Sequence record: PX880099.1
From: a phage
Direction: 5' to 3' (one strand)
Length of the DNA stretch: 64,000 nucleotides
Under the pieces are notes generated by a model. It had not been told where the DNA came from. It searched no databases and saw only the letters and a program-made list of their open reading frames with translations. Shown piece by piece: positions 21,786 to 52,350 of this stretch (its first letter is position 1; each line of letters begins with the position of its first letter). The position numbers and the translations under genes were made by a program.

Positions 21786-21988
21786 TCTTCTTCCTCATTA
21801 AATTCCACATCAGAAATAACTTTAAATCTACCAAAGTTACGACAACCTTCATAGATATATCCATCACGACAAGCTGCAAAAATATCTGGAGTTTGTAGCT
21901 GGGTCATTGGGGCAAAGCGTTTCTCTTCGTCATAACGAACACCTATTTCTCCAGCTTGTTCGTCAAGCATGTATACACGGATTCTCAT
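21782..21988 (-). CDS. hypothetical small protein
   Basis: 68 aa; ATGA-type overlaps with neighbours. Confidence 0.45.
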   Translation of the reverse strand: MRIRVYMLDEQAGEIGVRYDEEKRFAPMTQLQTPDIFAACRDGYIYEGCRNFGRFKVISDVEFNEEEE

Positions 21989-23097
21989 TTACCCAACCCC
22001 TTCTTAACAGCGTCAACCATCCCATCTTCGAGAGATTGAACTTCATTGATGTAATCAACACGGGCAGCACGGGCTTCCGTATTGATGCGGTTAGTTTCTT
22101 CCAACATTTTAACCAAGTTTTCCTGATCGTGACGCAGAGTTTCAATATCCAACACTTGACGGTTAGCCAGTGCTGCTGCTTCGATCTGATTCTGTGTGGC
22201 AAGATCGCTACCCAGTTTAATTGCCAGGTTAAATTCATCAAGAACGTTATTCTGTGTCTCTGCGGCTTTCATTTGACGTAAGCTTTCAATATACATTGAG
22301 AAGTTAGCAGAGTAAGCAGGAATAACATTATTTACTATGTTACGCGCAGATCGCATTAAGCTTGCAGAAACTTTTTGCATACCTTGCACACGTGGTCCCA
22401 TTTGGACACACAGTAGGCGCAATGCTTTTAAATCCGCAATACGAATCTCCAGAAGATCCAAGGTATCTCGGATCGCTTGTCGCTGTTCTACCGCATCTTC
22501 TGGAAGAGCAGCCAAAGCTTGTTCTTCTTTTTCATAGGTCGCTGTTAGAAGCTGCATATCTCGGTTCAAACTTGCAGCATATTGTCCAATAGCTTGATGT
22601 AGCTTTTCAAGGTATACCAAAGAATCTTCTTCTTTGCGAATATCCATTTGAAGGTTCTTTACCAACTCTTCAATACGGTTATTAACATTATCAAACTCCC
22701 CAAACAGATCTTCTTTCATACCCATAACTTTTTTAATGAGTTTAGTAATACCTTTGCTTTGTTTAATAGAGTTTGGATCAAGTTGTTTTGCCTGTTTAAT
22801 CAAAGCTGTGAGTCGTTCACTCATCTGATCGCCTTGATTACTACGTTGATGTTTTAATACCTCGGCATTCAAGGAACGCAAGGTTGTTCCTGCCTCTGCC
22901 CCGATCTCTTCGATCTCTTGTCGTGTCATAGAAGGCAAAACTGGGACTTCTTGCGGTGCGGCTGGTGCATAAACAGGACTGGCATCTAACACGCTTGGAG
23001 CAAATACAGATTTACTTGCATCTGTTGTTGCAGTGAATACACTCATTTCAGACTTCTTCTGACCACCAGTAGCTGCTTTTAAAAACGGACTTGTCAT
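21985..23097 (-). CDS. TelA-like toxic-anion-resistance protein
   Basis: 370 aa, long predicted coiled-coil, overall resemblance to TelA/KlaA; sits between TerD-like and TerC genes. Confidence 0.65.
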   Translation of the reverse strand: MTSPFLKAATGGQKKSEMSVFTATTDASKSVFAPSVLDASPVYAPAAPQEVPVLPSMTRQEIEEIGAEAGTTLRSLNAEVLKHQRSNQGDQMSERLTALIKQAKQLDPNSIKQSKGITKLIKKVMGMKEDLFGEFDNVNNRIEELVKNLQMDIRKEEDSLVYLEKLHQAIGQYAASLNRDMQLLTATYEKEEQALAALPEDAVEQRQAIRDTLDLLEIRIADLKALRLLCVQMGPRVQGMQKVSASLMRSARNIVNNVIPAYSANFSMYIESLRQMKAAETQNNVLDEFNLAIKLGSDLATQNQIEAAALANRQVLDIETLRHDQENLVKMLEETNRINTEARAARVDYINEVQSLEDGMVDAVKKGLGK

Positions 23098-23684
23098 TCT
23101 TCATTCTCCTCTTCTGCATCTCTTATGTATGGTGAAACACCGTATTCTTTAGCTACTTTAACCCAATCGTCCCATTTATACAACCATAATTTTCCTTCTG
23201 TTCCTTCTTTATCTGATTTTAACCACATATTAGGTTGCTTACCTGGATACATGCGATTAGGTTTACGATTATAACCTCTAATACATCTTGTCGCAAACCT
23301 ATCTACCAGAACAAGAACATATTTATATTCGTGGTTCAACGGCTCTTTGGAAGTAGCTTTAGGGTTTGCCCCTAATTCTGCTGCCAGTTTTTGCCAATGA
23401 GCACCGTGCCGACTAAACTTACCCATACAACCATCAATAGCATGAGCAATTTCGTGCTTCATTGTATCCACGATCATATCTCTTGTAGAGTTCTTATGCA
23501 AGTGCCAATTTACAACAACAATTTTATCTCGGTAGTTGCACCAACCGAAAGAGTTATTCACTTTGTTTCTAACGCAAGCTTTATATCCTGCTTCACGTAA
23601 CATGTTGTAGTAAACAGGAAAATCTTCTTTTATTTCCTGCATCACTTCCCACCACAAGAGTTGCAAGTCTCTCTCGGTATACAT
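23094..23684 (-). CDS. SprT-like zinc metallopeptidase domain protein
   Basis: HEIAHAID (HExxH) with downstream His/Cys-containing segment. Confidence 0.5.
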   Translation of the reverse strand: MYTERDLQLLWWEVMQEIKEDFPVYYNMLREAGYKACVRNKVNNSFGWCNYRDKIVVVNWHLHKNSTRDMIVDTMKHEIAHAIDGCMGKFSRHGAHWQKLAAELGANPKATSKEPLNHEYKYVLVLVDRFATRCIRGYNRKPNRMYPGKQPNMWLKSDKEGTEGKLWLYKWDDWVKVAKEYGVSPYIRDAEEENEE

Positions 23685-23687
23685 AAC

Positions 23688-24281
23688 TTACACCTTAAAA
23701 GTGAAATGCGTGGTCGTGGCTTCAAAATCAGGGCCAGATAAACGTGCACTGAAATCTGAAATATTTGTAATTAAAAAGCTTTTATGCATACCTAACACAG
23801 CCACGCTTTCAATATCTTCTACTAACATTTCAATCATGTTAGAAACATGGCTGAACGTAGTGTTTTGTTTTTTGATGGTGTAGAAAGAAAGATTCCCACC
23901 TGCTGTATAAGATACTTCTTCAAAATCTTTAATCGTATACTGTGTCCCATCAGTAAAGAAAATGGTAGCTTTATTAGTAGCACGTTTCTTGTTTTTTGGT
24001 CCTTTTTTACGTTTACTGCGAGTAGGAAAACCATTTGGGAATACCGTAGCTACAAATTCTTCAGGAGAAACCTCCTTACCGAAATCATAACCATAAGAAA
24101 CAGCATCTATAAACTCATCGTCCTCATTTTTAAAATAATGAAAATAGGGCCAATTTGACAGATTATCAAGCATCTTATGCTCATCCACAGCAGAGAACGT
24201 ATCCCTCAAAGCACGTGTGATTTGCAAAGCATTAGGCAACCTTTTAACACCTACGATGGAAGTACGAATAGAAATTGTCAT
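23688..24281 (-). CDS. hypothetical protein
   Basis: 197 aa with basic KRKKGPKNKKR patch. Confidence 0.5.
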   Translation of the reverse strand: MTISIRTSIVGVKRLPNALQITRALRDTFSAVDEHKMLDNLSNWPYFHYFKNEDDEFIDAVSYGYDFGKEVSPEEFVATVFPNGFPTRSKRKKGPKNKKRATNKATIFFTDGTQYTIKDFEEVSYTAGGNLSFYTIKKQNTTFSHVSNMIEMLVEDIESVAVLGMHKSFLITNISDFSARLSGPDFEATTTHFTFKV

Positions 24282-24295
24282 TATTTTTCTCCTTA

Positions 24296-24733
24296 TTAAC
24301 GTCGCTTGCTACGAGATGAACTCTTTTTACTTAAAGGGCTATTGTAAGATTTACGAGTTGTATAGCTGCTATTTGTTTTAAAAGTTTGTCTCGGCTTTTC
24401 ATAAGTTTTTATCTCTTGTTTAGGCTTACCATAAAAATTAGTTTTCGGTTTAGGTGTGTTATAATGTTTATTAATAATCGTTCTGTTATCGTTATAATCC
24501 CCGCCGCTACGATTACTGCCACCGCTCATCATATGTCCTAACAACATACCTGTAGCAAACTCACCAACACCGCTACTACTAGAACCGCCACCATTGTTGA
24601 TAATAGTTGTATCTCCGTCAGATCCTTGTTGAGCGTATTGTTGAGGAGGTTGTTGATATTGTGTAGGATTTGTTTCATCCTCGCAAGCTGTTAAAAAGAT
24701 ACAACCAATTAAAATCAGGGCTAGTTTTTTCAT
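24296..24733 (-). CDS. putative lipoprotein, Gly/Ser/Gln-rich with basic C-terminal tail
   Basis: Start set at ATG after SD GAGGAAAG; signal peptide ending in lipobox LTAC. Confidence 0.55.
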   Translation of the reverse strand: MKKLALILIGCIFLTACEDETNPTQYQQPPQQYAQQGSDGDTTIINNGGGSSSSGVGEFATGMLLGHMMSGGSNRSGGDYNDNRTIINKHYNTPKPKTNFYGKPKQEIKTYEKPRQTFKTNSSYTTRKSYNSPLSKKSSSRSKRR

Positions 24734-24920
24734 ATTTGCTTTCCTCGTTTTGACTATTAATACATCTGTGTTTGAAATCTCCAGAGAAGCAATAAAGCTG
24801 CTCTCCATCTCGGTATAAACTCACTTTACTGCCGTTGATTACGCTTGTCAATACAAAAATTACAACAAACAACCCTATTGCAAAACAAATATTTTCAAAC
24901 ACAACCAACAAGTATTTCAT
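24675..24920 (-). CDS. small membrane protein overlapping the lipoprotein gene start
   Basis: One predicted N-terminal TM helix; ATGA overlap with upstream gene; 59-nt out-of-frame overlap with lipoprotein gene. Confidence 0.4.
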   Translation of the reverse strand: MKYLLVVFENICFAIGLFVVIFVLTSVINGSKVSLYRDGEQLYCFSGDFKHRCINSQNEESKYEKTSPDFNWLYLFNSLRG

Positions 24921-25267
24921 TTTAAAAATACCTCATCATCAGTTTCATTATCCCAGAAGAACAAATCCCAACCATTAGGATCATTCCACTTGGCGGCTGG
25001 AGAAGTCCAGATTTGTTCGATATCAATATTCAAAACTTCGCCGTTTCGTTTTGAAACAGCCTTGGTTAATTCCCAACGAGATACAGGTTCTACCTCTCCT
25101 GAACCACTTCCACAACAAACTACTACGTTAGGAGGAAGGTTAATTGGATCTTTGGTCACAATCATAACGCTTACCCCAGGGTAAACTTTTGAAAGATAAT
25201 CTGAAACGTAATCAACATCACCAGGTAAATCCCAAACAAGTTTTTGAATTTCATCAAAATTGCTCAT
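24917..25267 (-). CDS. hypothetical protein
   Basis: 116 aa; first gene after the TerC terminator. Confidence 0.5.
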   Translation of the reverse strand: MSNFDEIQKLVWDLPGDVDYVSDYLSKVYPGVSVMIVTKDPINLPPNVVVCCGSGSGEVEPVSRWELTKAVSKRNGEVLNIDIEQIWTSPAAKWNDPNGWDLFFWDNETDDEVFLK

Positions 25268-25269
25268 AA

Positions 25270-25296
25270 GTCTCTCCTATAAAATAGCCTCCCGAA
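25270..25296 (-). terminator. rho-independent terminator after TerC gene
   Basis: AGCCTCC-cgaa-GGAGGCT hairpin followed on - strand by ATTTTAT. Confidence 0.55.
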
Positions 25297-25309
25297 GGAG
25301 GCTCATCTA

Positions 25310-26284
25310 TTAAACAGCAGCTTCTTCTTTTTCAGGGAAGATAAAGCTTGCAATAACGCCAAGAGCTAATGTGCCTAGAACAATCATCAGACTTACGTTA
25401 GGGGAAATATCATGCGGGAGGAATGACCACTTGGCATGAAGTGTTTCACCGAACGGGTGATACATAAGTTTAGCACCAACAAACACCAGAACCACAGCAA
25501 CAGCTTTCTCTAAGTGAACCAAATATTTCACAGCTACACTTAACACAAAGAAAAGTGCACGTAAACCAAGAACAGCCATCAGCATTGCAGAATAAACTAG
25601 CAGAGGTTCTTGTGTCACACCGATCACAGCCGGAACTGAATCAAAAGAGAAGACAATATCTGTAAGCTCAATAACAAACACACAAAGAAGAGCAGGAGTT
25701 GCATATTTAATACCATTCTTAATGGTAATGAACTTTTCACCATCCAGTGCATTGTGCACAGGCAGGATTTTACCTACTAAACGAACAGCCCAATGTTTAG
25801 AGTAATCGATATCCTCTTCTTCATCACCACCTTTGATGATAGCCACGGCAGACCAAGCTACAATCAAACCGAACAACACTTGGACCGACCAATGAAGGTT
25901 AAACAGAGCGGTGCCTGCTGCAACAAAAATACCTCGGAAGACAATGGCTCCTGCAATCCCCCAAAGTAAAATCTTATGTTGGAGATGTGTGCTCTTAATT
26001 CCAAAGCTTGCAAAAATTGCCATGAACACCATTAGGTTATCTACAGAAAGACTCTTTTCCAACACATAGCCACTTAGGAAAAGCGCGGCAAACTCTTTAC
26101 CATGTTCTACCCAAATGAATGCGTAATATCCTAAAGCTAAAGCAATCCAAAAAACAGACCAAAGCAAAGCAGATTTAATTCCAATTTCTTTATTCTCTTT
26201 ATGACCAAAGAAATCGATACCAATAGACAATGCTAAAATACCAACTAAAACAACTACATCAATGATTGGGAAACCAAGTTGCAT
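25310..26284 (-). CDS. TerC-family integral membrane protein
   Basis: Multiple TM helices; signature LSVDNLMVF; SD AAGGAG before ATG. Confidence 0.8.
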   Translation of the reverse strand: MQLGFPIIDVVVLVGILALSIGIDFFGHKENKEIGIKSALLWSVFWIALALGYYAFIWVEHGKEFAALFLSGYVLEKSLSVDNLMVFMAIFASFGIKSTHLQHKILLWGIAGAIVFRGIFVAAGTALFNLHWSVQVLFGLIVAWSAVAIIKGGDEEEDIDYSKHWAVRLVGKILPVHNALDGEKFITIKNGIKYATPALLCVFVIELTDIVFSFDSVPAVIGVTQEPLLVYSAMLMAVLGLRALFFVLSVAVKYLVHLEKAVAVVLVFVGAKLMYHPFGETLHAKWSFLPHDISPNVSLMIVLGTLALGVIASFIFPEKEEAAV

Positions 26285-26303
26285 TATTTTCTCCTTTCTC
26301 TTT

Positions 26304-26362
26304 GCGGGGAACCACTCCCCGCCTCATGTGATACATCTTACTCTTTTTTAAAACCTTGTCAA
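26304..26362 (-). promoter_or_regulatory. promoter plus 5' stem-loop cassette (same type as the 48-59 kb array) driving TerC
   Basis: On - strand TTGACA-16 bp-TAAGAT-GTATCAC then GGCGGGGA-gtgg-TTCCCCGC hairpin, then SD and ATG. Confidence 0.6.
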
Positions 26363-26365
26363 CAC

Positions 26366-26587
26366 TTATTTTGAAGAACTGGAGGAAAAGATTCCACGCA
26401 GCACTGCCATAATGAACGCTACGCACACCACGGTCCAGAATGTAACAGGAACAGTGATATCTGTGTGACCCATCATTTCAACAACGTAGTTGTAAGCCAG
26501 CAGCAGAAGCCACGCTGGAATCATACTGATCAGGAAAGCCAGAACAAACACGATAACTACTGCCAGAACACCTGCAACAACACCCAT
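26366..26587 (-). CDS. small membrane protein (two TM helices)
   Basis: 73 aa, strongly hydrophobic. Confidence 0.5.
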   Translation of the reverse strand: MGVVAGVLAVVIVFVLAFLISMIPAWLLLLAYNYVVEMMGHTDITVPVTFWTVVCVAFIMAVLRGIFSSSSSK

Positions 26588-26600
26588 ATTATTTCTCCTC

Positions 26601-27083
26601 TTAAAGTTTATAAATAGTCACATCGTGACCTGCTTTTACTAAAGTTTCTTCAATCATCACTTCAATGATAGCCCAATTACCTCCTGCCAACCCTGCTCCA
26701 ATCATAGGTAAACCAATCTTATGTTCGGCAGATGTGTTCACCCATTTGTGGAGATCCTTTGCCATAGCCTCAAGAGCATCATACAGGGCATCATAGTCCA
26801 ACTGACGACCTTTACCGTTATACCCGTAACGGTACTGTCCGTATAGGTTATAAACCAGTGGGTCAGACACCTCCTCCGGCACCCCTAAACTAAAAGAACC
26901 CAGCTTACTTTGATCACCTGCGGCTGTGTCCAAGTCGGCTGCATATGCATAAGGAAATGCTCGTTTAATTTGCGGAGCAATCCCTGCACCCATATTACAC
27001 ATACAGTTACAACAGTGGGCTATAACGTTCACTTCCCCGTTCTTCGCTGCATCGATCAGATTCCCAGTAACAACCTTCAACAT
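26601..27083 (-). CDS. macro-domain protein (ADP-ribose binding/processing)
   Basis: GNLIDA..VNVIAHCCNC..GAGIA resembles the macro-domain N-terminal core. Confidence 0.65.
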   Translation of the reverse strand: MLKVVTGNLIDAAKNGEVNVIAHCCNCMCNMGAGIAPQIKRAFPYAYAADLDTAAGDQSKLGSFSLGVPEEVSDPLVYNLYGQYRYGYNGKGRQLDYDALYDALEAMAKDLHKWVNTSAEHKIGLPMIGAGLAGGNWAIIEVMIEETLVKAGHDVTIYKL

Positions 27084-27092
27084 TTTTCCTCC

Positions 27093-27920
27093 TTACAGAA
27101 TATGTTGTTTTGTGTAACGATCCAAGAACTCAAAGTTTTCAGTATACTTTGCAATTCGATTGTAGCCTTCAGCTAAACAGCCGAAGAAAAGTTGTTCCAC
27201 ATAGTAGTGTGGCAATTGGCTAAGAATGATTTTGAAGTCTTCATGATTTTGGCCCATAAGGTACTTAATAGGACGAACAAGACACTGTGCATCACGTTCT
27301 TCATTAATCATTTTAACAAACGCTTCTGGTGTATTAATATAGTTAAAATTCAGCTTAGCTTCGGTATCTGCTTGATTACCTTCATATTTTGCAAAATACA
27401 AGAAGTAAACATCATTTTTAACTTGATTTTCATCAAGAATCTCAATCAGTTTGTCTTCATGAGTTCCAGTGATATTTACATCATCAATGAACACAAGCTT
27501 CTTATCACCCCAGAATTCTTTGTTGCAGTAGAATGTATCCCCATCAATAAGTTTCTTACGACTAGCTTTATCTAAGAAACCATAATCGTTGATATAGCTA
27601 ACTTTACGATGAATAATATCCAGTTCTGCTGAACGACCTTGATCATATTGTGCTTGCAACATATTAAAGTAATTAATAAAATGATCTGTCATCATTGTTG
27701 CAGCATTATGCACATGGTTATAAGGAGAAGGAATGATAACAAATTGTTCCCCAATATGTTTCATTGCCACTTGAGCAAAAAACTGAAGTGCCAATTCTTT
27801 ACCCATACGACGCGCAGCTTGGTTACTGCCAAATTTCAATTTTGAATAATCTTTGATATCAAAAGTAGCAGTTTCCAGGTCATCAAATTTATTTGCAAAA
27901 ATTTGAGTTTGATTACGCAT
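27093..27920 (-). CDS. phosphoribosyltransferase (PRTase)-like protein
   Basis: KLVFIDDVNITGTHE fits the PRTase PRPP-binding motif (hydrophobic-DD-x-x-TG-x-T). Confidence 0.55.
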   Translation of the reverse strand: MRNQTQIFANKFDDLETATFDIKDYSKLKFGSNQAARRMGKELALQFFAQVAMKHIGEQFVIIPSPYNHVHNAATMMTDHFINYFNMLQAQYDQGRSAELDIIHRKVSYINDYGFLDKASRKKLIDGDTFYCNKEFWGDKKLVFIDDVNITGTHEDKLIEILDENQVKNDVYFLYFAKYEGNQADTEAKLNFNYINTPEAFVKMINEERDAQCLVRPIKYLMGQNHEDFKIILSQLPHYYVEQLFFGCLAEGYNRIAKYTENFEFLDRYTKQHIL

Positions 27921-28569
27921 TTACAATTTCTCCTCTTTTAAGTTTCTCTAGTAAGTCGTTAGGGTTCTTAATATGACAGAAGTTAATCCCTATGTCAACA
28001 CATTTTCCATCAAATTCTTCGCTGTCCCCAACATGTAAAATCTCTTCAGCCTTCAAAGGAATGCTTGAATATGTGGCGGTCCTAACAAAGAATCTAGGAT
28101 CTGGTTTACACAACAGATGTTCGTCTGAAAAATGCATAAATTCAAAACAATTCCAACTGTCAAACATACAAGCACGACGCAAAATATCCCCAGATATGAA
28201 ATTAGTATTGCTTTTAATACTAAGATCATATTTACCAGACAAGTATAGCAAACAAACTGGCAAATCTAAAGCAATATGTGGAGGAAATTTAAGAAACCAT
28301 TGTTCACACTCAAAACGCATTTGTGCAGATTCTACAGGGGTTAAACCTATCTTTCTTCCCAACATGTTCCATGCATATGCTACGCCTTCTGCACACCCAT
28401 TTAGTGCAGCATTATCCATAATTTCTTTGGCATCTTTATATGCTTCTTTTGCCGCACGTTCAGACATTCTACCATATGTAGCAATAGTGTGCGTACGTGC
28501 ATCTGCATAGTTTTGATTGGCAGAAATAAGAGTATTCCATACATCAAAAGAAATATGTTTTATTGTCAT
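27913..28569 (-). CDS. HAD-superfamily hydrolase-like protein
   Basis: ISFDVWNTL (motif I-like), LCKPDPRFF and HVGDSEEFD (motifs III/IV-like); start set at MTIKH. Confidence 0.5.
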   Translation of the reverse strand: MTIKHISFDVWNTLISANQNYADARTHTIATYGRMSERAAKEAYKDAKEIMDNAALNGCAEGVAYAWNMLGRKIGLTPVESAQMRFECEQWFLKFPPHIALDLPVCLLYLSGKYDLSIKSNTNFISGDILRRACMFDSWNCFEFMHFSDEHLLCKPDPRFFVRTATYSSIPLKAEEILHVGDSEEFDGKCVDIGINFCHIKNPNDLLEKLKRGEIVNA

Positions 28570-28570
28570 A

Positions 28571-29176
28571 CTAGGCCCACCACGCATCAAGATTTAAGTT
28601 ACTGTCTACCACAACTTGTTCTATGTGGTAGCCTTTTATCTGTATCCCACTGTTCAAGAGCATATCATATGCTTCATTGAAACGCAACTTATCTTCTGCG
28701 GAATATAAGCGAGCATTGTAAAATCGGTAATCAAGTTCTTCAGCATTAGAAGAAATACGGAAGAAGTTTGTTTCTACTTCAGGATCACTTGCTGAAGTTT
28801 TAATGTGAACTTCTCCGTAATTTTCTTTGCTTAGATCCATGAAAAGAACACAGGCAACATGTTTAAACATTCGTTCCAGTTTGTAACGAACAACATTGAA
28901 ACCTGCGTTCTCAAGTTTTTCTACACATTGCAACATTAACGTAGTGTCGAGATCGCTTTGATACTTTGTTAACATACGATCACGTTGAGACTTTGTATCC
29001 CGATGTAAATCAATTGTTGTGCATTTGGCACCAATGATCTTAGCTGCTTTCATCAACTCTTCAGAACTAACGTTAGATAAAGTAAGATGAAAATGGGCTT
29101 TCCACACTTTTTTAGCAGGGACACCAAAAGATTTATCCCCACTATTCGGCATGTTGACTACTACACTATGTTGCAT
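28571..29176 (-). CDS. hypothetical protein
   Basis: 201 aa; HFHLTL resembles one H-x-T-x motif of 2H phosphoesterases but the second motif is unclear. Confidence 0.45.
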   Translation of the reverse strand: MQHSVVVNMPNSGDKSFGVPAKKVWKAHFHLTLSNVSSEELMKAAKIIGAKCTTIDLHRDTKSQRDRMLTKYQSDLDTTLMLQCVEKLENAGFNVVRYKLERMFKHVACVLFMDLSKENYGEVHIKTSASDPEVETNFFRISSNAEELDYRFYNARLYSAEDKLRFNEAYDMLLNSGIQIKGYHIEQVVVDSNLNLDAWWA

Positions 29177-40649: not shown

Positions 40650-40710
40650 TTGTTTTCTCCTCTTGTTTTGTATGAGTTGATCTTAACAGGACTAAAAAGC
40701 ATGTCAATAC

Positions 40711-40738
40711 TTGATCTGAAATTATTTTCAGGTATCAT
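40711..40738 (+). promoter_or_regulatory. sigma70-like promoter for the + strand block
   Basis: TTGATC-16 bp-TATCAT about 25 nt before the first + strand start in the divergent intergenic region. Confidence 0.35.
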
Positions 40739-40766
40739 ATATGAACATTAACAAGAGAGGTAGATG

Positions 40767-44438: not shown

Positions 44439-45899
44439 GTGCCAAAAATAGTCACTTGGGAACAATATAAAACAGATATAAAACAAGCTTATCAAGGTAA
44501 GTCTTGGACTGTTGTAGATTATATTGAGCCGTGGAACGGCAATAAAACTAAACTTAGATGCATCTGTGCTCTGCATGGAGAATGGAAAACAACAAGCATA
44601 AATACCGCTAAACTAGGGAGGGGTTGTCCAGAATGCGGTAGGGAGATTATAAGTAAAGCAGTATCTATAAACAAATCAAAAACCTGGGAGCAATATAAAG
44701 AAGAAGTGCAAACCACTTACAATCAGGCAGGTAAGTTTTGGACTGTTACAGGATGGCACGGAGAATGGAAAGGATGGAATACTAAACTGGTTTGTTGTTG
44801 TGCTTTACATGGGGAGTGGAGGTCTACTTCTATATCTTCTGCGAAAAACGGGAGTGGATGCAGGAAGTGTATGGGAGAAGCAAACAGAGAAAGAACATCG
44901 ATTGCATGGGAGCAATATAAAGAAGAAGTAGAAGAAGCTTATAAAGAAAAACCCTGGATTGTTAGAGGCTATGTGGAACCGTGGAACGGTTCCCGCACTA
45001 AGTTGATTTGTGAGTGTAAGGTTCATGGTCAATGGTGCACTACCACTGTAAACAGTGCTAAACAAGGGACTGGATGCTACAGTTGTCAAAGAGAAATGAC
45101 GAAACAAAGGAATACAATGGAGGATAAACAACATGTTGAAGATTTTATAAAAGCTTGTCCTGATAATGTAGAGCGTAAATATTATCGTAGCGATAGAGTA
45201 GATAGATTAGGTCGTCAGGTTTACTGGATTGTAGAATGTCCTATATGTGCAGAGGATGATTATTGTAAAGAAGGCTTATGCGATAATAAATTTGAGATGA
45301 AGATGAGTCATTTGAAAAGGGGTGGCCTTCCTTGCCGTTGTTCTAAATATTATCATTACACTCCTGAACAATGGGCCTACCGTATGACCAAAGCTTGCCA
45401 GGAACGAGGGGATCAATTTATAGGATTCATTGATAAGGTAAGCAATAACAGCAAGTTTAAATATCTATGTAGGGAGCATGGAGAGCAAACGATCACACCT
45501 ACCGATTATCTCAATGGGAAAGGTTGTCCAGGCTGTAAGAACAGAAATATGCAAGAATTTTACATCAATATTATTCTTGATGAGTACGGAGAAGACACGG
45601 GAGCTTACAAGTTGGGGATTGCAAAGGACAGTGATATCAGGATCAAAGGGCAGAATGCAAACAACAATTACTCTATGCGCCGTATAGCATTGTTCGATCT
45701 GCCGTCCTACCAAGCTTGCAGGGCGTTAGAGAGTAAGCTAAAGTCTAAGACTGATCAGATTCTACCGTCTATTGGCTGTGTAGAACGCTTGCACATGAAA
45801 GATGGTCATAGTGAAACCTTCCTGCGCGAGGATTTGGCTATCGTCTTAAGTGCTATCAACCAAGCAGGTGGAATAATGAGAGAGGAGGAAACATGTTAG
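44439..45899 (+). CDS. Cys-rich protein with three tandem zinc-ribbon-like repeats
   Basis: GTG start after G-rich SD; module W.G..TKL.C.C..HGEW.T.S......G.GC..C repeated three times, then a Cys/His-rich C-terminal domain. Confidence 0.55.
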   Translation: MPKIVTWEQYKTDIKQAYQGKSWTVVDYIEPWNGNKTKLRCICALHGEWKTTSINTAKLGRGCPECGREIISKAVSINKSKTWEQYKEEVQTTYNQAGKFWTVTGWHGEWKGWNTKLVCCCALHGEWRSTSISSAKNGSGCRKCMGEANRERTSIAWEQYKEEVEEAYKEKPWIVRGYVEPWNGSRTKLICECKVHGQWCTTTVNSAKQGTGCYSCQREMTKQRNTMEDKQHVEDFIKACPDNVERKYYRSDRVDRLGRQVYWIVECPICAEDDYCKEGLCDNKFEMKMSHLKRGGLPCRCSKYYHYTPEQWAYRMTKACQERGDQFIGFIDKVSNNSKFKYLCREHGEQTITPTDYLNGKGCPGCKNRNMQEFYINIILDEYGEDTGAYKLGIAKDSDIRIKGQNANNNYSMRRIALFDLPSYQACRALESKLKSKTDQILPSIGCVERLHMKDGHSETFLREDLAIVLSAINQAGGIMREEETC

Positions 45900-47078: not shown

Positions 47079-47234
47079 TTGTCCTATACAAACCCTTGTC
47101 TTTTTCAGTTTGCATCACTAGGATTCGATCTGAGTGGGTTCCTGAAGGTTTACCAATAAGATTAAAGGTTATATCAAATTCCCACTATCTTTTATCTCAA
47201 AAATCCCTCAAATTATTTAAACTTTTTAAGAATT

Positions 47235-47420
47235 TACAAAAGTGAAAGTTGAAAACCAAAATTTAAAGTTTAGGAAAATTATCTTAAAATGTTAGATACA
47301 AAACAAAACTCAAAAGTCAAGGAAAATTTTAAAAATTTTGCGCGCCCACAGTATTTAAAGTTTTTTTGCTTTTACAAAAATGAAAGTACAAAAGCAAAAT
47401 TTAAAGTTTACAAAAATTTT
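47235..47420. repeat. two copies of a ~46-bp AT-rich direct repeat
   Basis: TACAAAAgtGAAAGTtgaAAAccAAAATTTAAAGTTTAggAAAATT at 47235-47280 repeated with few changes at 47374-47420. Confidence 0.6.
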
Positions 47421-47461
47421 TATGCAGGTGAAAATGAGAAGAGTTCTCATATGGAAATGCA

Positions 47462-47480
47462 AATGATAATGATTCGCATT
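47462..47480. promoter_or_regulatory. Fur-box-like palindrome
   Basis: TGATAATgATTcgCA versus 7-1-7 consensus TGATAATnATTATCA; flanked by palindromic AAATGC..GCATTT. Confidence 0.3.
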
Positions 47481-47519
47481 TAAGTTTATAAATGAGATTG
47501 ATTCTTATTTAATAAGGTA

Positions 47520-47538
47520 AATGACAATCATTCTCATT
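47520..47538. promoter_or_regulatory. Fur-box-like palindrome
   Basis: TGAcAATcATTcTCA, two mismatches to 7-1-7 consensus. Confidence 0.3.
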
Positions 47539-47798
47539 TAGAGAATGACGCGCAGGGGCGGTGTTTGTCTCGCGCTCCCGTGTCCACTCGCCATGTAATA
47601 AGAATAACAGATCCAGCCAGGAAAGCAAGCGATTATTTTATCTTTACATTTCTTTACAAATATATAGCACCCAGCCTACCGGCGATCAACCTTCCAACCA
47701 GTGCCCCCTGGTATGTTAGCCCCGCCTTTACGCCGTGGGGTGGCGCTTCCTCTTCTGTATGTAAAACAGTATAAGCCCGATCCCTGGGCTTGTCAAGA

Positions 47799-48065: not shown

Positions 48066-48173
48066 GATATCGCCCTTTCTTTGTTGTGCGCCCTGGTTGG
48101 CGCGGTAGAAAGATAATAGCCCTTTTCTTTATATATAGCAAGCAAAAAGAAAATAAAAAAGATTGAAAAATGG

Positions 48174-48231
48174 TTGACGTTAACCAGGCGGCGGCGTAGT
48201 ATTCATCTTGTAGGGCGGCAATGGTGCCGCT
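48174..48231 (+). promoter_or_regulatory. promoter plus 5' stem-loop cassette 1
   Basis: TTGACG-17 bp-TAGTAT, then GGCGGCA-atgg-TGCCGCT hairpin at predicted transcript 5' end. Confidence 0.6.
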
Positions 48232-48251
48232 CACTATTTGGAGTTAAGATC

Positions 48252-48449
48252 ATGGCAACATTGCACATTGTGGCGAAAGCTGGACAAATCAACGTAGTGG
48301 TAAACGGTTTTACTGAGTTCAGTCACCCCCAGGATGATCATGAAACGGTTTTATCTTTCATTGATTCCCTGTTAGAAATGGGAGTCATTACAGAAGACCA
48401 GCACGCTACAAAATGCAAGCGCGTTAATCAAATTGTAGGAATAGAATAA
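48252..48449 (+). CDS. hypothetical small protein (cassette gene)
   Basis: Start set at ATG after GGAG; 65 aa. Confidence 0.5.
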   Translation: MATLHIVAKAGQINVVVNGFTEFSHPQDDHETVLSFIDSLLEMGVITEDQHATKCKRVNQIVGIE

Positions 48450-48456
48450 AAAGTAT

Positions 48457-48516
48457 TGACAACAAACAACAACCTGATAAGATGTATCACATAGGGCGGC
48501 GGAATGGTCCACCGCT
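48457..48516 (+). promoter_or_regulatory. promoter plus 5' stem-loop cassette 2
   Basis: TTGACA, -10-like TAAGAT/ATAGAT, GTATCAC, then GGCGGCGGA-atgg-TCCACCGCT hairpin. Confidence 0.6.
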
Positions 48517-48540
48517 CACAACAGAAGAGAGATTATCATC

Positions 48541-48813
48541 ATGGCATCATATAGCGCAACAATGATCGTAGCTGGCACCACTGGTAAACCTATGCGCGGT
48601 GGCGGATCTTTCGCTAATATCAATATTGACGGGCGTTTATCCCTGGACGCAGCGATCACCGTGGCGCGGGAAACATTTAAGAAAGAATGTAAATTCAATA
48701 AACAAGATTATCTCGGTTTTGCTATTGAAAAAACCGCGCGCTTTGTTGATTATAAAAGCCCGAAAATGGTTGACACTACATTAAAAGCGCAAGATGTAGC
48801 GTTTTTGCTTTAA
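48541..48813 (+). CDS. hypothetical small protein (cassette gene)
   Basis: 90 aa; purine-rich SD before ATG. Confidence 0.55.
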   Translation: MASYSATMIVAGTTGKPMRGGGSFANINIDGRLSLDAAITVARETFKKECKFNKQDYLGFAIEKTARFVDYKSPKMVDTTLKAQDVAFLL

Positions 48814-48816
48814 GGC

Positions 48817-48872
48817 TTGACATTAACGAATAATTTGTTAATATGTTACATAAAGCGGGAATAGTTCCCGCT
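48817..48872 (+). promoter_or_regulatory. promoter plus 5' stem-loop cassette 3
   Basis: TTGACA-16 bp-TAATAT then AGCGGGAA-tag-TTCCCGCT hairpin. Confidence 0.55.
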
Positions 48873-48889
48873 ATTTGTAAGGTGGTAGA

Positions 48890-49147
48890 ATGTTTTACAT
48901 CAAATTAAAAGGTCACGTGATCGCGTTCAAAGATAACGCTTTTTACAGATTAGCAAAATATGCGTTAATACATCCCCACTATGTTTATATAAGGGGGCGT
49001 GATGAAATAAATATCTTTGATCAAACAACATGCGAGAACATCGAGATCCGCAAGGTTGGCGTACGTGATTATCGTACATCTTTCTACCCTTGCAAGGATT
49101 CAGCAAGTCTTTTTAAAGTATGCCAATTGTTGAAAAAAGGTGGTTAA
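48890..49147 (+). CDS. hypothetical small protein (cassette gene)
   Basis: 85 aa; SD AAGGTGG before ATG. Confidence 0.55.
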   Translation: MFYIKLKGHVIAFKDNAFYRLAKYALIHPHYVYIRGRDEINIFDQTTCENIEIRKVGVRDYRTSFYPCKDSASLFKVCQLLKKGG

Positions 49148-49148
49148 T

Positions 49149-49706
49149 ATGGGCCGCGAATATGTGATCCAGTCTTGGGTAAAACATGAAGCAGATGATC
49201 CGCGCATCATTCCCGATCATCTTATCGATGAATCCACGGGATATAGTGGTGAGCAAATAGGTAACAGATTAGCACGTAGTAACGGCAACGTAAAAGCGCG
49301 TTATGTGCGCCCTGGCTGGCTGGCAAATGGTAACGCTGATTTATCCAGTGCGGAAGATGCGAGCGACGGCGCGAAAGATAATCCTTTGTACAAAGTTGAT
49401 CCAGCTTTTCGTGTCCTGGATGAATACCCCAGCAAGATAGCGGCGCTCGATCAGGCCCTGGAAAGTAAGCGCATCACCTGGACCGCTTACAACATGGCAA
49501 AAAACGTACTTGATGGTAAATTGATTCAAGCTGAAAGAAAATTAGCCAAAATTGCAGCCATAGCCCAGGAGGAAGACGAGGAGACAACGGAAGAGGAAGA
49601 GTACGAAGAGATCCCGCCGTTGTTGTGTGTTGATGCTTTTCCTGATTATCAGCCGACAGAGGAAGAAAAAAGGATCGCACTAGAAAACTTTGAAAATAGT
49701 CTTTGA
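49149..49706 (+). CDS. hypothetical protein with acidic C-terminal region (second gene of cassette 3 operon)
   Basis: Start set at ATG after SD AAAGGTGG; no promoter between it and the upstream gene. Confidence 0.55.
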   Translation: MGREYVIQSWVKHEADDPRIIPDHLIDESTGYSGEQIGNRLARSNGNVKARYVRPGWLANGNADLSSAEDASDGAKDNPLYKVDPAFRVLDEYPSKIAALDQALESKRITWTAYNMAKNVLDGKLIQAERKLAKIAAIAQEEDEETTEEEEYEEIPPLLCVDAFPDYQPTEEEKRIALENFENSL

Positions 49707-49761
49707 CATATCGCCGCCACTGGCATAATATTTACCACGTAGGGCGGCAATGGTGCCGCTC
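49703..49761 (+). promoter_or_regulatory. promoter plus 5' stem-loop cassette 4
   Basis: TTGACA-17 bp-TAATAT-TTACCAC then GGCGGCA-atgg-TGCCGCT hairpin. Confidence 0.6.
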
Positions 49762-49788
49762 ATAGTGAAATTATGCAAGAGGCTTACA

Positions 49789-49884
49789 ATGATTAATAAA
49801 GAAAATAGCTTGACGGTTGGAACGATTAACGCTATCATTCTAGCCGTTCCATTTTGGGTTGTAGTAGCGGCTATTATTTTCTAA
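49789..49884 (+). CDS. possible 31-aa hydrophobic peptide
   Basis: ATG after AAGAGG; single predicted TM segment; only ORF between cassettes 4 and 5. Confidence 0.3.
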   Translation: MINKENSLTVGTINAIILAVPFWVVVAAIIF

Positions 49885-49892
49885 AAATATTC

Positions 49893-49952
49893 TTGACAAC
49901 GTTTTTTAATCTGATAAGATGTATCACGTAGGGCGGCGGAATACTTCCCCGC
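49893..49952 (+). promoter_or_regulatory. promoter plus 5' stem-loop cassette 5
   Basis: TTGACA-16 bp-TAAGAT-GTATCAC then GGCGGCGGAA-tac-TTCCCCGCC hairpin with one bulge. Confidence 0.6.
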
Positions 49953-49974
49953 CAAAACAAAAAAGGGTAACACA

Positions 49975-50337
49975 ATGAGCAAGCAAATCAATACTATCAT
50001 GTTTAATCTGGTATCTTTCCGCGATGATATGAAAAATTTACCACGTGAAACGGTTGATATTCATGTTTCAGCTTATCGCGCCCTTATTGACATGTTACCG
50101 CTAAAACGTGATCAACATGCCGCTAATATGATGCTTAATGCTATGCTTAAAAAGATGATTCAAACGGATCTTACTCTGGCGTATGAGTATCAAGGGCGCT
50201 TATATGCGACTTACAACAAAGCGGTACCTGGTCTGGGAAGTACCGAAGAGTTGCACGGCTTAAACCTGGATCAAAACACTTGGGATAGTATGCGCCGCGT
50301 TATGGTATGGGCCGAAAGCGGTAAAATTTACGAATAA
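49975..50337 (+). CDS. hypothetical protein (cassette gene)
   Basis: 120 aa; SD AAAGGG before ATG. Confidence 0.55.
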   Translation: MSKQINTIMFNLVSFRDDMKNLPRETVDIHVSAYRALIDMLPLKRDQHAANMMLNAMLKKMIQTDLTLAYEYQGRLYATYNKAVPGLGSTEELHGLNLDQNTWDSMRRVMVWAESGKIYE

Positions 50338-50343
50338 AAACGG

Positions 50344-50401
50344 TTGACACTGTTTAAACTTCTGGTATAGTTTATCACGTAGGGCGGCAATGGTGCCGCC
50401 A
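50344..50401 (+). promoter_or_regulatory. promoter plus 5' stem-loop cassette 6
   Basis: TTGACA-16 bp-TATAGT-TTATCAC then GGCGGCA-atgg-TGCCGCC perfect hairpin. Confidence 0.65.
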
Positions 50402-50420
50402 ACAATAAAAGGTTAACATC

Positions 50421-50600
50421 ATGGCTATCATTGCAAAAACTGAGATTATAGGTTTAGATTCGATCCTCCTGGCTTATGAGGAAACTTTAAAAATGTATGT
50501 AGTGACCTATGGTGATTATGTGCGTGAATACGAATACATTGATCTTGCTTTCGAATGTTACATTCGCCAGGTCAATAAAGCCTATAATGATTATCGTTAA
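50421..50600 (+). CDS. hypothetical small protein (59 aa, below ORF-track cutoff)
   Basis: ATG after AAAAGG; only ORF between cassettes 6 and 7. Confidence 0.45.
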   Translation: MAIIAKTEIIGLDSILLAYEETLKMYVVTYGDYVREYEYIDLAFECYIRQVNKAYNDYR

Positions 50601-50619
50601 AAGTTTTAGTCTTATACTA

Positions 50620-50670
50620 TTGACAATGAGTGATAGTATAAGCATAATAACTTTTATCGGGAATACTTCC
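50620..50670 (+). promoter_or_regulatory. promoter plus short 5' stem-loop cassette 7
   Basis: TTGACA-17 bp-CATAAT then GGGAA-tac-TTCCC hairpin. Confidence 0.5.
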
Positions 50671-50697
50671 CACTAACCAAAAAGAGAGAGTGACACC

Positions 50698-51063
50698 ATG
50701 GCTATTAATATCAATGTTTCCGCTTATGCTACCCTGGCTAACACGGCTAAAATTGAATTATCCAGCATTGAGGCGGTGCATATTAGCGCCCGTCGCTGGT
50801 TTCAACAGTCCTACGGTAACACATATTTTTCTTTAATGGTTGACGTTGAGATCGGCGGTAAACTGATCGAGGTGGTTAACGTTCCGTTTCAATATGGCTA
50901 TGGTGATCATTTTGATACCGTCGCCCTGGAAGAATTTAGCAAGGTTATCAACCTTGAGGGCAAGGAATTTTCACGCGGCGCGTATCTTTCCCGTTTTTGC
51001 CGTGACAATGGGATCACTGTATACAGTCATGCAAGCGATGTAAAACGTAAAAAAGATTTATAA
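50698..51063 (+). CDS. hypothetical protein (cassette gene)
   Basis: 121 aa; SD GAGAGAG before ATG. Confidence 0.55.
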   Translation: MAININVSAYATLANTAKIELSSIEAVHISARRWFQQSYGNTYFSLMVDVEIGGKLIEVVNVPFQYGYGDHFDTVALEEFSKVINLEGKEFSRGAYLSRFCRDNGITVYSHASDVKRKKDL

Positions 51064-51069
51064 AAAGCA

Positions 51070-51129
51070 TTGACAGCACGAATAAAAAGAGTAAACTGTA
51101 TTACATAGAGAGCGGGAATAGTTCCCGCC
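51070..51129 (+). promoter_or_regulatory. promoter plus 5' stem-loop cassette 8
   Basis: TTGACA-16 bp-TAAACT-GTATTAC then GCGGGAA-tag-TTCCCGC hairpin. Confidence 0.6.
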
Positions 51130-51152
51130 TCATTCAAAGAGAGATTATCATC

Positions 51153-51392
51153 ATGGCTATTACTAAAACTTACAACGGTCACAAAAACAAAACTCACTGG
51201 AATGTAAGCCTTTGGATTAATAACGACGAATCATTATATCGGTTGGCGAAAGAATTTATCGCCGCTAATACTAATCGTAATGATGCTGCCCGTGATATGA
51301 TGTTATTCCTGGAACAAACTGGACAAGATAAAACTCCAGACGGTTTCAAGTATAGCACTACAGCGATCCGCGCCGCGATGGTTGGAATGTAA
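51153..51392 (+). CDS. hypothetical small protein (cassette gene)
   Basis: 79 aa; SD AGAGAG before ATG. Confidence 0.55.
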   Translation: MAITKTYNGHKNKTHWNVSLWINNDESLYRLAKEFIAANTNRNDAARDMMLFLEQTGQDKTPDGFKYSTTAIRAAMVGM

Positions 51393-51401
51393 TAAAAACA
51401 G

Positions 51402-51461
51402 TTGACAACGTTTAAAATTAGTGTAAGATGTATCACATAGGGCGGGAAGTGGTTTCCCGCC
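51402..51461 (+). promoter_or_regulatory. promoter plus 5' stem-loop cassette 9
   Basis: TTGACA-16 bp-TAAGAT-GTATCAC then GGCGGGAA-gtggt-TTCCCGCC hairpin. Confidence 0.6.
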
Positions 51462-51483
51462 AACAACAGAGAGATTAAAGATT

Positions 51484-51711
51484 ATGGCTATCAATATTGT
51501 TCGCGTATCCGGCACCGTTGGCACTTCCCAGGTTATTGCAGTTGTAACAAACAAAAAGATTAATGATGTATGTGAGATCTTGAATAAGTGGGCTATTGCT
51601 AATTTTGGGGAATATGCAAGCGTCGAGTACATCGAATCCTACCAGGTGCCAACCATCAGCCTGACCGATCTCAACGTTGATCGCCTGTTATGCCTGGATG
51701 AATTAATCTGA
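51484..51711 (+). CDS. hypothetical small protein (cassette gene)
   Basis: 75 aa; SD GAGAG before ATG. Confidence 0.55.
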   Translation: MAINIVRVSGTVGTSQVIAVVTNKKINDVCEILNKWAIANFGEYASVEYIESYQVPTISLTDLNVDRLLCLDELI

Positions 51712-51720
51712 AAAAGATTG

Positions 51721-51777
51721 TTGACACGGGAAAGAAAAAGAGTAAACTGTATTACGTAGGGCGGCAATAGTGCCGCT
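51721..51777 (+). promoter_or_regulatory. promoter plus 5' stem-loop cassette 10
   Basis: TTGACA-16 bp-TAAACT-GTATTAC then GGCGGCA-atag-TGCCGCT hairpin. Confidence 0.6.
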
Positions 51778-51801
51778 CACAACAGAAGAGAGATTATCAC
51801 G

Positions 51802-52014
51802 ATGGCTAATATCCGCACACTGTTAAAAAATGCAAGTCAAGTTTTATTTTCTGATCACGATCATTTTAATAAAGATATTACAGGCGTGAAGAATATCAAA
51901 GATGTAAAAAGTGTTATGGGTATATATTGCAATGTTAAACGTGTTGGAACGTTCGGTGATAAAGTATTGTACCAATCAGGTGATTACAATTTTACTTTGA
52001 CGATTATTTCATAA
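51802..52014 (+). CDS. hypothetical small protein (cassette gene)
   Basis: 70 aa; SD AGAGAG before ATG. Confidence 0.55.
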   Translation: MANIRTLLKNASQVLFSDHDHFNKDITGVKNIKDVKSVMGIYCNVKRVGTFGDKVLYQSGDYNFTLTIIS

Positions 52015-52019
52015 AACGC

Positions 52020-52081
52020 TTGCAATACTGCAAAAATAAAGTAAACTGTATTACATCAAGGCGGCGGAATGGTCCACCGCC
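52020..52081 (+). promoter_or_regulatory. promoter plus 5' stem-loop cassette 11
   Basis: TTGCAA-16 bp-TAAACT-GTATTAC then GGCGGCGGA-atgg-TCCACCGCC hairpin. Confidence 0.55.
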
Positions 52082-52105
52082 TAACAAAGAGAAGAGGAAA
52101 ATATT

Positions 52106-52273
52106 ATGATCACTTTCGCTACCCGTGAAGCCGCTCGCAACGTTGCACGTAAAGTTAACGCCGCCAACCTGGGCGCTACGCTTAAAGCCCCTGTAAAAGA
52201 TGAATCAGGAAAATGGATCTTCCCTGGTCTACGTCATGCTGACAAGTTAGGTACTTTAAGCCTTAAAAAATAA
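52106..52273 (+). CDS. hypothetical small basic protein (55 aa, below ORF-track cutoff)
   Basis: ATG after SD GAAGAGGAAA; N-terminus MITFA shared with 52526-52747. Confidence 0.45.
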   Translation: MITFATREAARNVARKVNAANLGATLKAPVKDESGKWIFPGLRHADKLGTLSLKK

Positions 52274-52276
52274 TCG

Positions 52277-52314
52277 TTGACTTTTCGTTATAGCGCCTTA
52301 TAATGGGCGCTATA
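52277..52314 (+). promoter_or_regulatory. promoter with palindrome straddling the -10 (variant cassette 12)
   Basis: TTGACT-16 bp-TATAAT with inverted repeat TATAGCGCC..GGCGCTATA enclosing the -10 hexamer. Confidence 0.5.
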
Positions 52315-52350
52315 GAGAAGAGAAACCAGTCACAACAGAGAGAAAATATC

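Follow-up and report, generated by a model that had tools for sequence, protein, structure and literature searches.

A predicted sigma-70 promoter and covarying leader hairpin upstream of a TerC-family gene in a phAPEC8-like phage

We analysed a 64,000-nucleotide (nt) stretch of DNA (record PX880099.1; hereafter the window) from a Phapecoctavirus (Stephanstirmvirinae), a phAPEC8-like Escherichia coli myophage with a genome of about 150 kb. On its minus strand, at 26362–26304, a sigma-70-like promoter and a hairpin precede a gene for a TerC-family integral membrane protein. By its sequence, this element is a true member of the promoter-plus-hairpin family found in an array of cassettes on the opposite strand, the likeness reflecting homology and conserved architecture rather than chance. 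Comparison between lineages indicates that the hairpin is under selection for pairing rather than for sequence, and that the TerC unit is old, the cassette having been present since before the Stephanstirmvirinae genera diverged. On balance, and with some reserve, we favour the view that the cassette is a self-contained expression module, in which a host sigma-70 early promoter is joined to a 5′-proximal messenger RNA (mRNA) hairpin that acts as a stabiliser or insulator.

The TerC locus and its kinship with the array

Reading the minus strand from 26362 to 26284 bore out the initial annotation, which had described TTGACA, a 16-nt spacer, TAAGAT and GTATCAC, a hairpin and a Shine-Dalgarno sequence upstream of TerC. 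The sequence runs TTGACA-16 nt-TAAGAT-GTATCAC-ATGAG-GCGGGGA/GTGGT/TCCCCGC (26362–26304), followed by AAGGAG and the TerC start codon (26284). The hairpin had been correctly located, but its arms, given as GGCGGGGA and TTCCCCGC, were one base out of register, the true arms being GCGGGGA and TCCCCGC. Directly upstream of the −35 hexamer lies an A-rich stretch, CAAAATAAGTG (26372–26363), within which falls the TAA stop (26368–26366) of an upstream 73-amino-acid open reading frame (ORF); array copies carry at this position AAAAA, an UP element-like run. The −35 hexamer TTGACA (26362–26357) is the consensus and is invariant in a 16-copy alignment (A1). A 16-nt spacer, AGGTTTTAAAAAAGAG, separates it from the −10 hexamer TAAGAT (26340–26335), giving a match to the sigma-70 promoter at 10 of 12 consensus positions with a spacing within 16–18 nt.

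The entire segment from the −10 hexamer to the hairpin is GTATCACATGAG, and within it the block GTATCACAT (26334–26326), which includes GTATCAC (26334–26328), is kept across copies. The leader hairpin (26322–26304) is formed by GCGGGGA (26322–26316), the loop GTGGT (26315–26311) and TCCCCGC (26310–26304), and its 7 bp have a folding energy of −14.3 kcal/mol (z = −2.85 against shuffled sequences). It is followed by AAAGAG, with no U-tract. The A/G-rich linker AAAGAGAAAGGAGAAAATA (26303–26285), unpaired in the predicted fold, holds the Shine-Dalgarno sequence AAGGAG (26296–26291) at a distance of 6 nt from the ATG (26284).

The gene itself (25310–26284, minus strand) encodes 324 amino acids matching Pfam PF03741 (138 bits, E = 3.6e-40) and is annotated as TerC/Alx in the records of relatives. 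Directly 3′ of it lies an intrinsic terminator, AGCCTCCTTCGGGAGGCT followed by ATTTTAT (25303–25286, minus strand), which in phage Schickermooser was annotated by ARNold (−16.4). Since TerC is flanked by its own predicted promoter and its own terminator, it would form an autonomous transcription unit inside the long leftward cluster of replication and nucleotide-metabolism genes. Its neighbours on the minus strand at ~21900–28600 include TelA (tellurite-resistance family), a macro-domain protein (Pfam PF01661), a PRTase-like protein and a HAD-type hydrolase; among these auxiliary genes, the promoter-hairpin cassette plus terminator was found for TerC only.

The array comprises 21 cassettes on the plus strand (48167–57790) with the layout TTGACA-16/17-TAnnnT-~GTATCAC-R-TAG-GGCGG...hairpin...CCGC-Shine-Dalgarno-ATG. 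Profile hits start at 48167, 48448, 48811, 49695, 49886, 50336, 50616, 51062, 51394, 51714, 52013, 52743, 53180, 53646, 53934, 54313, 54804, 55167, 55607, 56406 and 57715, so that 21 of the 22 copies in the window fall within a 9.6-kb array of ORFan genes, the TerC copy being syntenic and stable. Each array cassette precedes a small ORF of 39–128 amino acids, and about 21 of the ~30 small ORFs of the array (36–185 amino acids in all) have a cassette of their own.

The initial annotation had recognised the same cassette on opposite strands ~22 kb apart, and this held. The TerC copy scored 52.9 bits against the cassette profile (E = 5e-15; rank 17 of 22 window hits), a score somewhat inflated because the TerC copy was among the 16 cassettes of A1 that seeded the profile, and nhmmer returned it at E = 2.6e-13. 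Independent of this seeding is the exact 13-mer TAAGATGTATCAC, for which the window has one minus-strand site (26340) and four plus-strand sites (48478, 49915, 51424 and 53676), five in all; as many matches were seen in none of 100 shuffles. The TAAGAT-GTATCAC block had been likened to the cassettes at 49893, 51402 and 53654, and the 13-mer is indeed exact in all three, as well as in the cassette whose TTGACA starts at 48456. Part order and spacing at TerC also fit the array family, with a 16-nt spacer, a stem that begins 12 nt past the −10 hexamer (8–12 nt in the array) and a gap of 19 nt between hairpin and ATG (4–26 nt in array copies). Both hexamers are invariant or near-invariant among 16–22 copies. 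Generic matches to TTGACN-N15–18-TANNNT numbered 42 in the window, and the 18 that were followed by a hairpin of −10 kcal/mol or better all belonged to the cassette family; only 2.7% of random 36-mers fold at −10 kcal/mol or better.

Conservation, covariation and distribution of the cassette

In every TerC orthologue the order is promoter, 8–12 nt, hairpin, A-rich linker, GGAG and ATG, and the copy keeps a conserved syntenic position across genera. Four Stephanstirmvirinae lineages retain the promoter, hairpin and ribosome-binding site before TerC, with stems that differ (5′ arms GCGGGGA, GCGGAGGA, AGAGGGAG and AGGGAGAG) yet are fully complementary. The window, phAPEC8 and phiWec181 share TTGACA-16-TAAGAT and the hairpin GCGGGGA/GTGGT/TCCCCGC. 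With the same promoter type, phages anhysbys, Mt1B1_P17 and Schickermooser have GCGGGGAA/TAG/TTCCCCGC, and ZCKP1 shows matching insertions, with additional G's in the 5′ arm and an additional C in the 3′ arm. Justusliebigvirus alia and PHB05 carry TTGACT-16-TATAGT-N12 followed by GCGGAGGA/TTG/TCCTCCGC. The hairpin is AGAGGGAG/ATAGG/CTCCCTCT in Klebsiella phage KP13-26 and an IMG/VR contig, and AGGGAGAG/ATAGG/CTCTCCCT in a second IMG/VR contig.

A related-locus search with TerC gave four IMG/VR loci, too few for a deep orthologue alignment. Because MAFFT mis-registers the 3′ arms when stem or loop lengths differ (alignments A1 and A3), a sequence-only model (R1), a hand-framed alignment (A4) and a chimera energy test took the place of a structured covariance model. 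In A4, made of gapless 25-nt hairpin segments from five TerC orthologue types and three array copies, all 56 of 56 cells were paired (100%), both sides changed in seven of seven pairs, and none of 500 shuffles equalled this. Slid registers were only 48–64% paired, a comparison that favours the structure, as the frames were chosen from predicted hairpins. The compensatory changes are plain in the raw sequences, aside from this framing. Among 25 distinct hairpins, native arms had a mean energy of −12.4 kcal/mol, compared with −8.1 kcal/mol when arms were swapped. The inner stem occurs as CA/TG, GA/TC, GAA/TTC, GAAA/TTTC, GGA/TCC, GGAAA/TTTCC and AGGA/TCCT, always complementary.

How far the cassette spreads was assessed over the whole window and over bases 1–150,000 of OR062524.1 (150,431 bases), a complete relative and the closest record (97.8% identity across 24000–29000 of the window). 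R1 found the 21 plus-strand copies at 48167–57790 and, as the sole other copy in the window, TerC; it found 21 array copies and the TerC copy in OR062524.1, and no cassette in the other 100 kb of that genome (best score 8.4 bits). A second, sequence-independent scan of OR062524.1, which looked for stable hairpins just downstream of a promoter pattern, recovered the array, TerC and one more convincing unit, upstream of gp93 (39244–39160, minus strand), which reads TTGACT-18-TAATAT-N10-TGGGAGGA/GGTGAG/TCCTCCCA-...AGGAG-ATG. This unit, just downstream of the ThyX gene and outside the window, is diverged in sequence and was missed by the sequence profile. Consensus sigma-70 promoters without a hairpin were also present in the window, at 40707 (minus strand, heading the leftward block) and at 40996, 42410 and 58543 (plus strand), and the phAPEC8 gp077 promoter likewise lacks one. 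With the sequence family confined to the array and TerC, a single diverged unit at gp93 and promoters free of the hairpin, the description of the cassette as a genome-wide regulatory unit in the initial annotation does not hold: the module is an element of the ~10-kb array plus very few isolated copies. Across phages, BLAST found the cassette family in 140 records from Phapecoctavirus, Justusliebigvirus and some Vequintavirus (such as FV3, slur16 and NHEP1), in most of which the element carries no annotation.

The window array differs from that of OR062524.1, to which it is 97% identical, at four places, each of which coincides with the edge of a cassette or module. One ORF has been exchanged in the interval from a promoter/leader to the following start codon (52345–52509); OR062524.1 has an additional cassette and ORF, whose insertion point lies precisely after a stop codon and before the next ribosome-binding site (window 54690); a segment made of a gene and a promoter is bounded by two hairpins (55442–55651); and one gene is deleted via fusion at the CGTAGGGCG core common to two neighbouring cassettes (57763–58054).

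Two other features of the array were seen. At 52277–52320 (plus strand), a promoter TTGACT-16-TATAAT has an inverted repeat, TATAGCGCC and GGCGCTATA, flanking its −10 hexamer in place of the downstream hairpin; this could be an operator or a stem-loop of the promoter-early stem-loop (PeSL) kind discussed below. Near-identical strong hairpins, AAGGGCGCAYCAAGCGCCCTT, with T-runs lie at 53413–53433 and 59050–59070 (also 58478–58513). They were called as terminators on both strands, and no other clear terminator lies inside the array or at its end.

Possible roles of the leader hairpin

As an expression module, the cassette would work as follows. Its near-consensus sigma-70 promoter (A-rich tract, TTGACA, 16–17 nt, TAnnnT) would be used by E. 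coli RNA polymerase in its unmodified form, and so most likely as soon as infection begins; early timing and membership of a co-regulated regulon, both proposed in the initial annotation, we infer only from this likeness to the host promoter consensus. Transcription would begin at a conserved purine ~8 nt past the −10 hexamer, and the first ~25–30 nt of RNA would fold into a G+C-rich hairpin of 7–10 bp, 3–6 nt from the 5′ end, followed by the A/G-rich linker, the Shine-Dalgarno sequence and the gene. The hairpin would limit 5′-end-dependent attack by RppH and RNase E while keeping the ribosome-binding site accessible, allowing short early mRNAs to accumulate. In a secondary role, the conserved cores of the cassettes might serve as homology patches for the gain, loss or swap of gene modules.

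Several anatomical features of the copies are relevant to this proposal. The block between the −10 hexamer and the stem is conserved (GTATCAC-R-TAG), and the purine 8 nt past the −10 hexamer is always A or G, usually after a pyrimidine. From the start-site preferences of E. coli, the predicted start at TerC is A26327 (the eighth nt past the −10 hexamer, after a pyrimidine) or, alternatively, A26329. If the conserved purine is the start, the unpaired 5′ tail would be 3–4 nt in array transcripts and 5 nt at TerC, and the hairpin would begin at about +3 to +6 of the predicted transcript. The core stem starts 8–12 nt past the −10 hexamer, most often 10–11, and ends anywhere from 4 to 26 nt before the ATG; the narrow spacing on one side and the variable spacing on the other show that the hairpin is positioned relative to the promoter and not the ribosome-binding site. 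Stems are 7–10 bp and loops 3–8 nt across copies, and the ribosome-binding site is unpaired in all folds. The sequence 3′ of the hairpin (AAAGAGAAAGG at TerC, CACAAC or CAACAA in the array) has no U-tract, and terminator scans did not call the hairpin as a terminator. Because the hairpin is tied to the transcript 5′ end, is selected for pairing, and neither terminates transcription nor hides the ribosome-binding site, its most likely role appears to be that of a 5′-proximal stabiliser and context insulator in the mRNA. The promoter call is supported by the phAPEC8 authors, who reached it independently with MEME: in their record (NC_020079.1), a 'putative host dependent promoter determined with MEME' at 121933–121971 is the orthologue of the TerC-upstream element, and the array cassettes carry the same MEME features.

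A precedent exists in the 5′-terminal stem-loops that stabilise the E. coli ompA and papA mRNAs (Emory 1992, Bouvet & Belasco 1992, Bricker & Belasco 1999, as cited in PMC3997798, refs 93–95). Like these, the cassette would place a stable hairpin a few nt from the predicted 5′ end, upstream of the ribosome-binding site and without overlapping it. Several points nevertheless weigh against a stabilising leader. The predicted single-stranded tail of 3–5 nt is longer than is best for protection, and at TerC its 5 nt are at or beyond the length reported to be protective, so that stabilisation is least certain for the TerC copy. Mean folding energies of −14.5 kcal/mol for the sense strand and −13.4 kcal/mol for the antisense strand do not separate an RNA from a DNA structure; the sense strand gains a G-U pair in eight copies, and three copies (GCGGCGGA/TCCACCGC) have a sense C-A mismatch and are better paired in the antisense strand. 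There is no terminator upstream of the TerC cassette, and the stop codon of the upstream ORF adjoins the −35 hexamer, so read-through transcripts would hold the hairpin internally. The similarity among array copies could largely reflect duplication, that is, common descent, rather than constraint. Finally, neither transcriptome nor start-site data emerged from a literature search on Phapecoctavirus, Justusliebigvirus and Vequintavirus.

The hairpin might instead be an RNA recognition site for a trans-acting factor (a phage RNA-binding regulator, an anti-terminator or a host factor) rather than a passive stabiliser. It would then single out one class of early transcripts, those of the array ORFans, TerC and gp93, to be controlled together after transcription; lambda N and boxB are the parallel for an anti-terminator. 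The unusually constant R-TAG-G-GCGG at the hairpin base of almost all array copies, the small set of loops (AATGG, ATAG, TAG, GTGGT, ATAGG) that extends even to distant TerC orthologues, and the presence of the hairpin on only a subset of the phage's sigma-70 promoters would all suit such a site. We consider it unlikely, however, given that stem sequences, stem lengths (7–10 bp) and loop lengths (3–8 nt) all vary, that the GCGG base motif is wholly absent from distant TerC orthologues, that no candidate binding protein was identified, and that constancy within the array may be mere common descent. The broader proposal that the leader hairpin is a subfamily-wide RNA tag of immediate-early transcripts (~20 ORFan genes, TerC and at least one more), read by a dedicated phage or host factor, seems to us equally doubtful. 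If it were true, the tag would span Stephanstirmvirinae and some Vequintavirinae, the factor would control stability, translation or shut-off jointly, and TerC would be a deliberately co-regulated member of a take-over gene set. A double-stranded DNA operator, at which a dimeric phage repressor would shut the promoters off after the early phase, is very improbable. The palindrome does lie at ~+4 to +25, a classic roadblock position, and on only a subset of promoters, and the sense and antisense energies give RNA no clear preference. Yet half-site sequence and spacing vary (loops of 3–8 nt) with symmetric compensatory changes, orthologous TerC sites lack a common half-site sequence, which fits base-pairing and not sequence-specific protein recognition, and the sense-strand 5′ arm is always purine-rich.

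PeSL cassettes are known from the T4-type phages RB49, phi1, PST and nt-1 (Arbiol et al. 2010, PMC2839356; Comeau et al. 2014, PMC4122927), where the stem-loop most commonly lies between the −35 and −10 hexamers or over the −10 hexamer and acts as a terminator or attenuator (PMC2839356). The present element could be chiefly a composite of this type, its stem-loop attenuating or terminating incoming transcription and its sequence mediating module-shuffling recombination, with no 5′ role in its own transcript. The ingredients and habitat are the same: strong sigma-70-like early promoters, an AT-rich upstream tract, a GC-rich stem-loop and a Shine-Dalgarno sequence, which in a PeSL form one ~100-bp intergenic motif (PMC2839356), with many copies packed among small ORFans. 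The breakpoints between close relatives fall at cassettes, as described for T4-type PeSLs (PMC2839356, PMC4122927), and a PeSL stem-loop lowered the expression of lacZ placed downstream to roughly the same extent as a strong terminator (PMC2839356). Unlike in a PeSL, the stem-loop of the array and TerC cassettes lies 8–12 nt downstream of the −10 hexamer, in the 5′ untranslated region (UTR), beyond the predicted start, where a terminator would stop the cassette's own transcript, and it has no U-tract. The lineage is Stephanstirmvirinae/Vequintavirinae and not T4-like, there is no sequence similarity, and the TerC copy is syntenic and conserved across genera rather than placed in a hyperplastic region. 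We therefore regard a chiefly PeSL-type composite as rather improbable; the element works partly like a PeSL without being a member of that family.

The phAPEC8 record also bears on a further possibility, that the conserved 20-mer (e.g. GTAGGGCGGCAATGGTGCCG) is itself a phage-specific promoter, as its label 'putative promoter determined with PHIRE' states. The repeated 20-mer does stand ~20–25 nt upstream of many start codons, but PHIRE reports any over-represented 20-mer, and this one is a perfect hairpin with covarying arms that always lies directly downstream of a consensus sigma-70 promoter. The complete relative OR062524.1 has no annotated RNA polymerase gene, dependence on the host polymerase is reported for rV5 and CB7 (PMC3606486, PMC7344957), and the TerC copy differs in its 20-mer sequence yet keeps the structure; we give this possibility very little credence. 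The six 20-nt PHIRE features of NC_020079.1 (143712–147561, e.g. 146256–146275) correspond exactly to array hairpins (GTAGGGCGGCAATGGTGCCG and similar sequences), all of them with a sigma-70 promoter immediately before the hairpin, and their promoter labels are probably a mis-annotation of the hairpins of sigma-70 cassettes. The repeats were seen in 2012 (phAPEC8), but the hairpin went unrecognised as such: the record describes no stem-loop, leaves the TerC hairpin unannotated and is silent on covariation, distribution and function.

Four other candidate functions were rejected. Structured leaders are familiar from bacterial TerC/Alx genes, namely the yybP-ykoY Mn2+ riboswitch and the pH-responsive leader of alx, and the phage gene likewise has a structured 5′ leader. 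Unlike those, it is ~45 nt with one simple hairpin of a type that also precedes ~20 unrelated genes; Rfam gave no hit across the whole window at the gathering threshold and noise only (E > 4) in a permissive search of 26200–26450, and a riboswitch or known RNA family (yybP-ykoY or alx-type) was discarded for want of a match. An intrinsic terminator was rejected on the lack of a U-tract and the absence of the hairpin from terminator scans, the true terminator of TerC being that at 25303–25286; translational occlusion, on the ribosome-binding site being free in every fold; and an RNase III site, on the established knowledge that stems of 7–10 bp are too short.

Similar promoters have been reported in Vequintavirinae. 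The Certrevirus phages CB7, CR3, CR8 and CR9 have a sigma-70-like early promoter, AAAA(N3)TGTTGAC(N19)TATAAT, concentrated in a small-ORF region (PMC7344957), and rV5 has 33 sigma-70 promoters (PMC3606486). The cassettes resemble these in promoter type with an A-tract and in their concentration among small ORFs, with few sites in replication and nucleotide-metabolism genes; they differ in the downstream stem-loop, on which those papers are silent. The literature searched yielded no account of the hairpin. Thus, the promoter half was already annotated in phAPEC8, and the 5′-UTR hairpin, its covariation and PeSL-like shuffling in this lineage appear to be undescribed in the searchable literature.

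The analysis gives a clean definition of a regulatory module that is present, mostly without annotation, in ~140 sequenced genomes of therapeutic-candidate E. coli, Klebsiella and Shigella myophages, and would correct the phAPEC8 annotation, in which the 'PHIRE promoters' are hairpins of sigma-70 promoter cassettes. The metabolic membrane gene TerC would have been equipped for autonomous and probably immediate expression already before the genera separated, which hints that TerC acts early in infection. The idea behind PeSLs, an expression unit that is also a recombination joint, would apply to an unrelated second lineage of phages as well, in which the parts are arranged differently. The compact promoter-hairpin-ribosome-binding-site unit may also offer a ready-made, insulated expression part of predicted high strength.

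Genome layout and further observations

Gene content was taken from the annotation of OR062524.1. The plus strand of the window holds the end of the late tail genes. A leftward block at ~5.6–40.6 kb includes SSB, DNA polymerase, primase/helicase, glycosyltransferases, endolysin, TelA, TerC, the macro-domain protein, PRTase, NrdD/G and a helicase, and a rightward block of small ORFs begins at ~40.7 kb. A divergent promoter region at 40680–40740 separates the two blocks. Its leftward promoter, TTGACA-16-TAAGAT (40707–40680), has the same −10 hexamer as the TerC cassette but no hairpin.

Between 46990 and 48150, ~1.2 kb appear to be mostly non-coding, with AT-rich repeats followed by a G+C-rich part. 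The repeats include two copies of a 72-nt unit (47209–47280 and 47347–47418) and 2.9 copies of a 29-nt unit (47461–47545) with dyad-like AAATGAgAATCATT motifs, and phage alia has 'repeat_region' features at the equivalent place. This region is a possible replication origin or other cis-acting site. On the minus strand at 47796–47768, the spacer of a consensus promoter, TTGACA-17-TATACT, forms a stem-loop, AAGCCCAGGGATCGGGCTT, that was in addition called terminator-like; T4-type PeSLs, but not the array cassettes, are laid out in this way.

At 44457–44989, a unit of about 225 nt (TGGGAGCAATATAAAGAAGAAG...) recurs as three diverged direct repeats. By coordinate transfer they appear within a coding sequence annotated 'endonuclease' in OR062524.1, which would mean a repeated protein domain of ~75 amino acids. 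Five 'Campylobacter phage' records (e.g. MG065645.1 A145 and MG065656.1 C3, ~146 kb) closely match this group of E. coli phages, as do one 'Pseudomonas phage' and one 'Acinetobacter phage' record, and the host labels of these records look doubtful.

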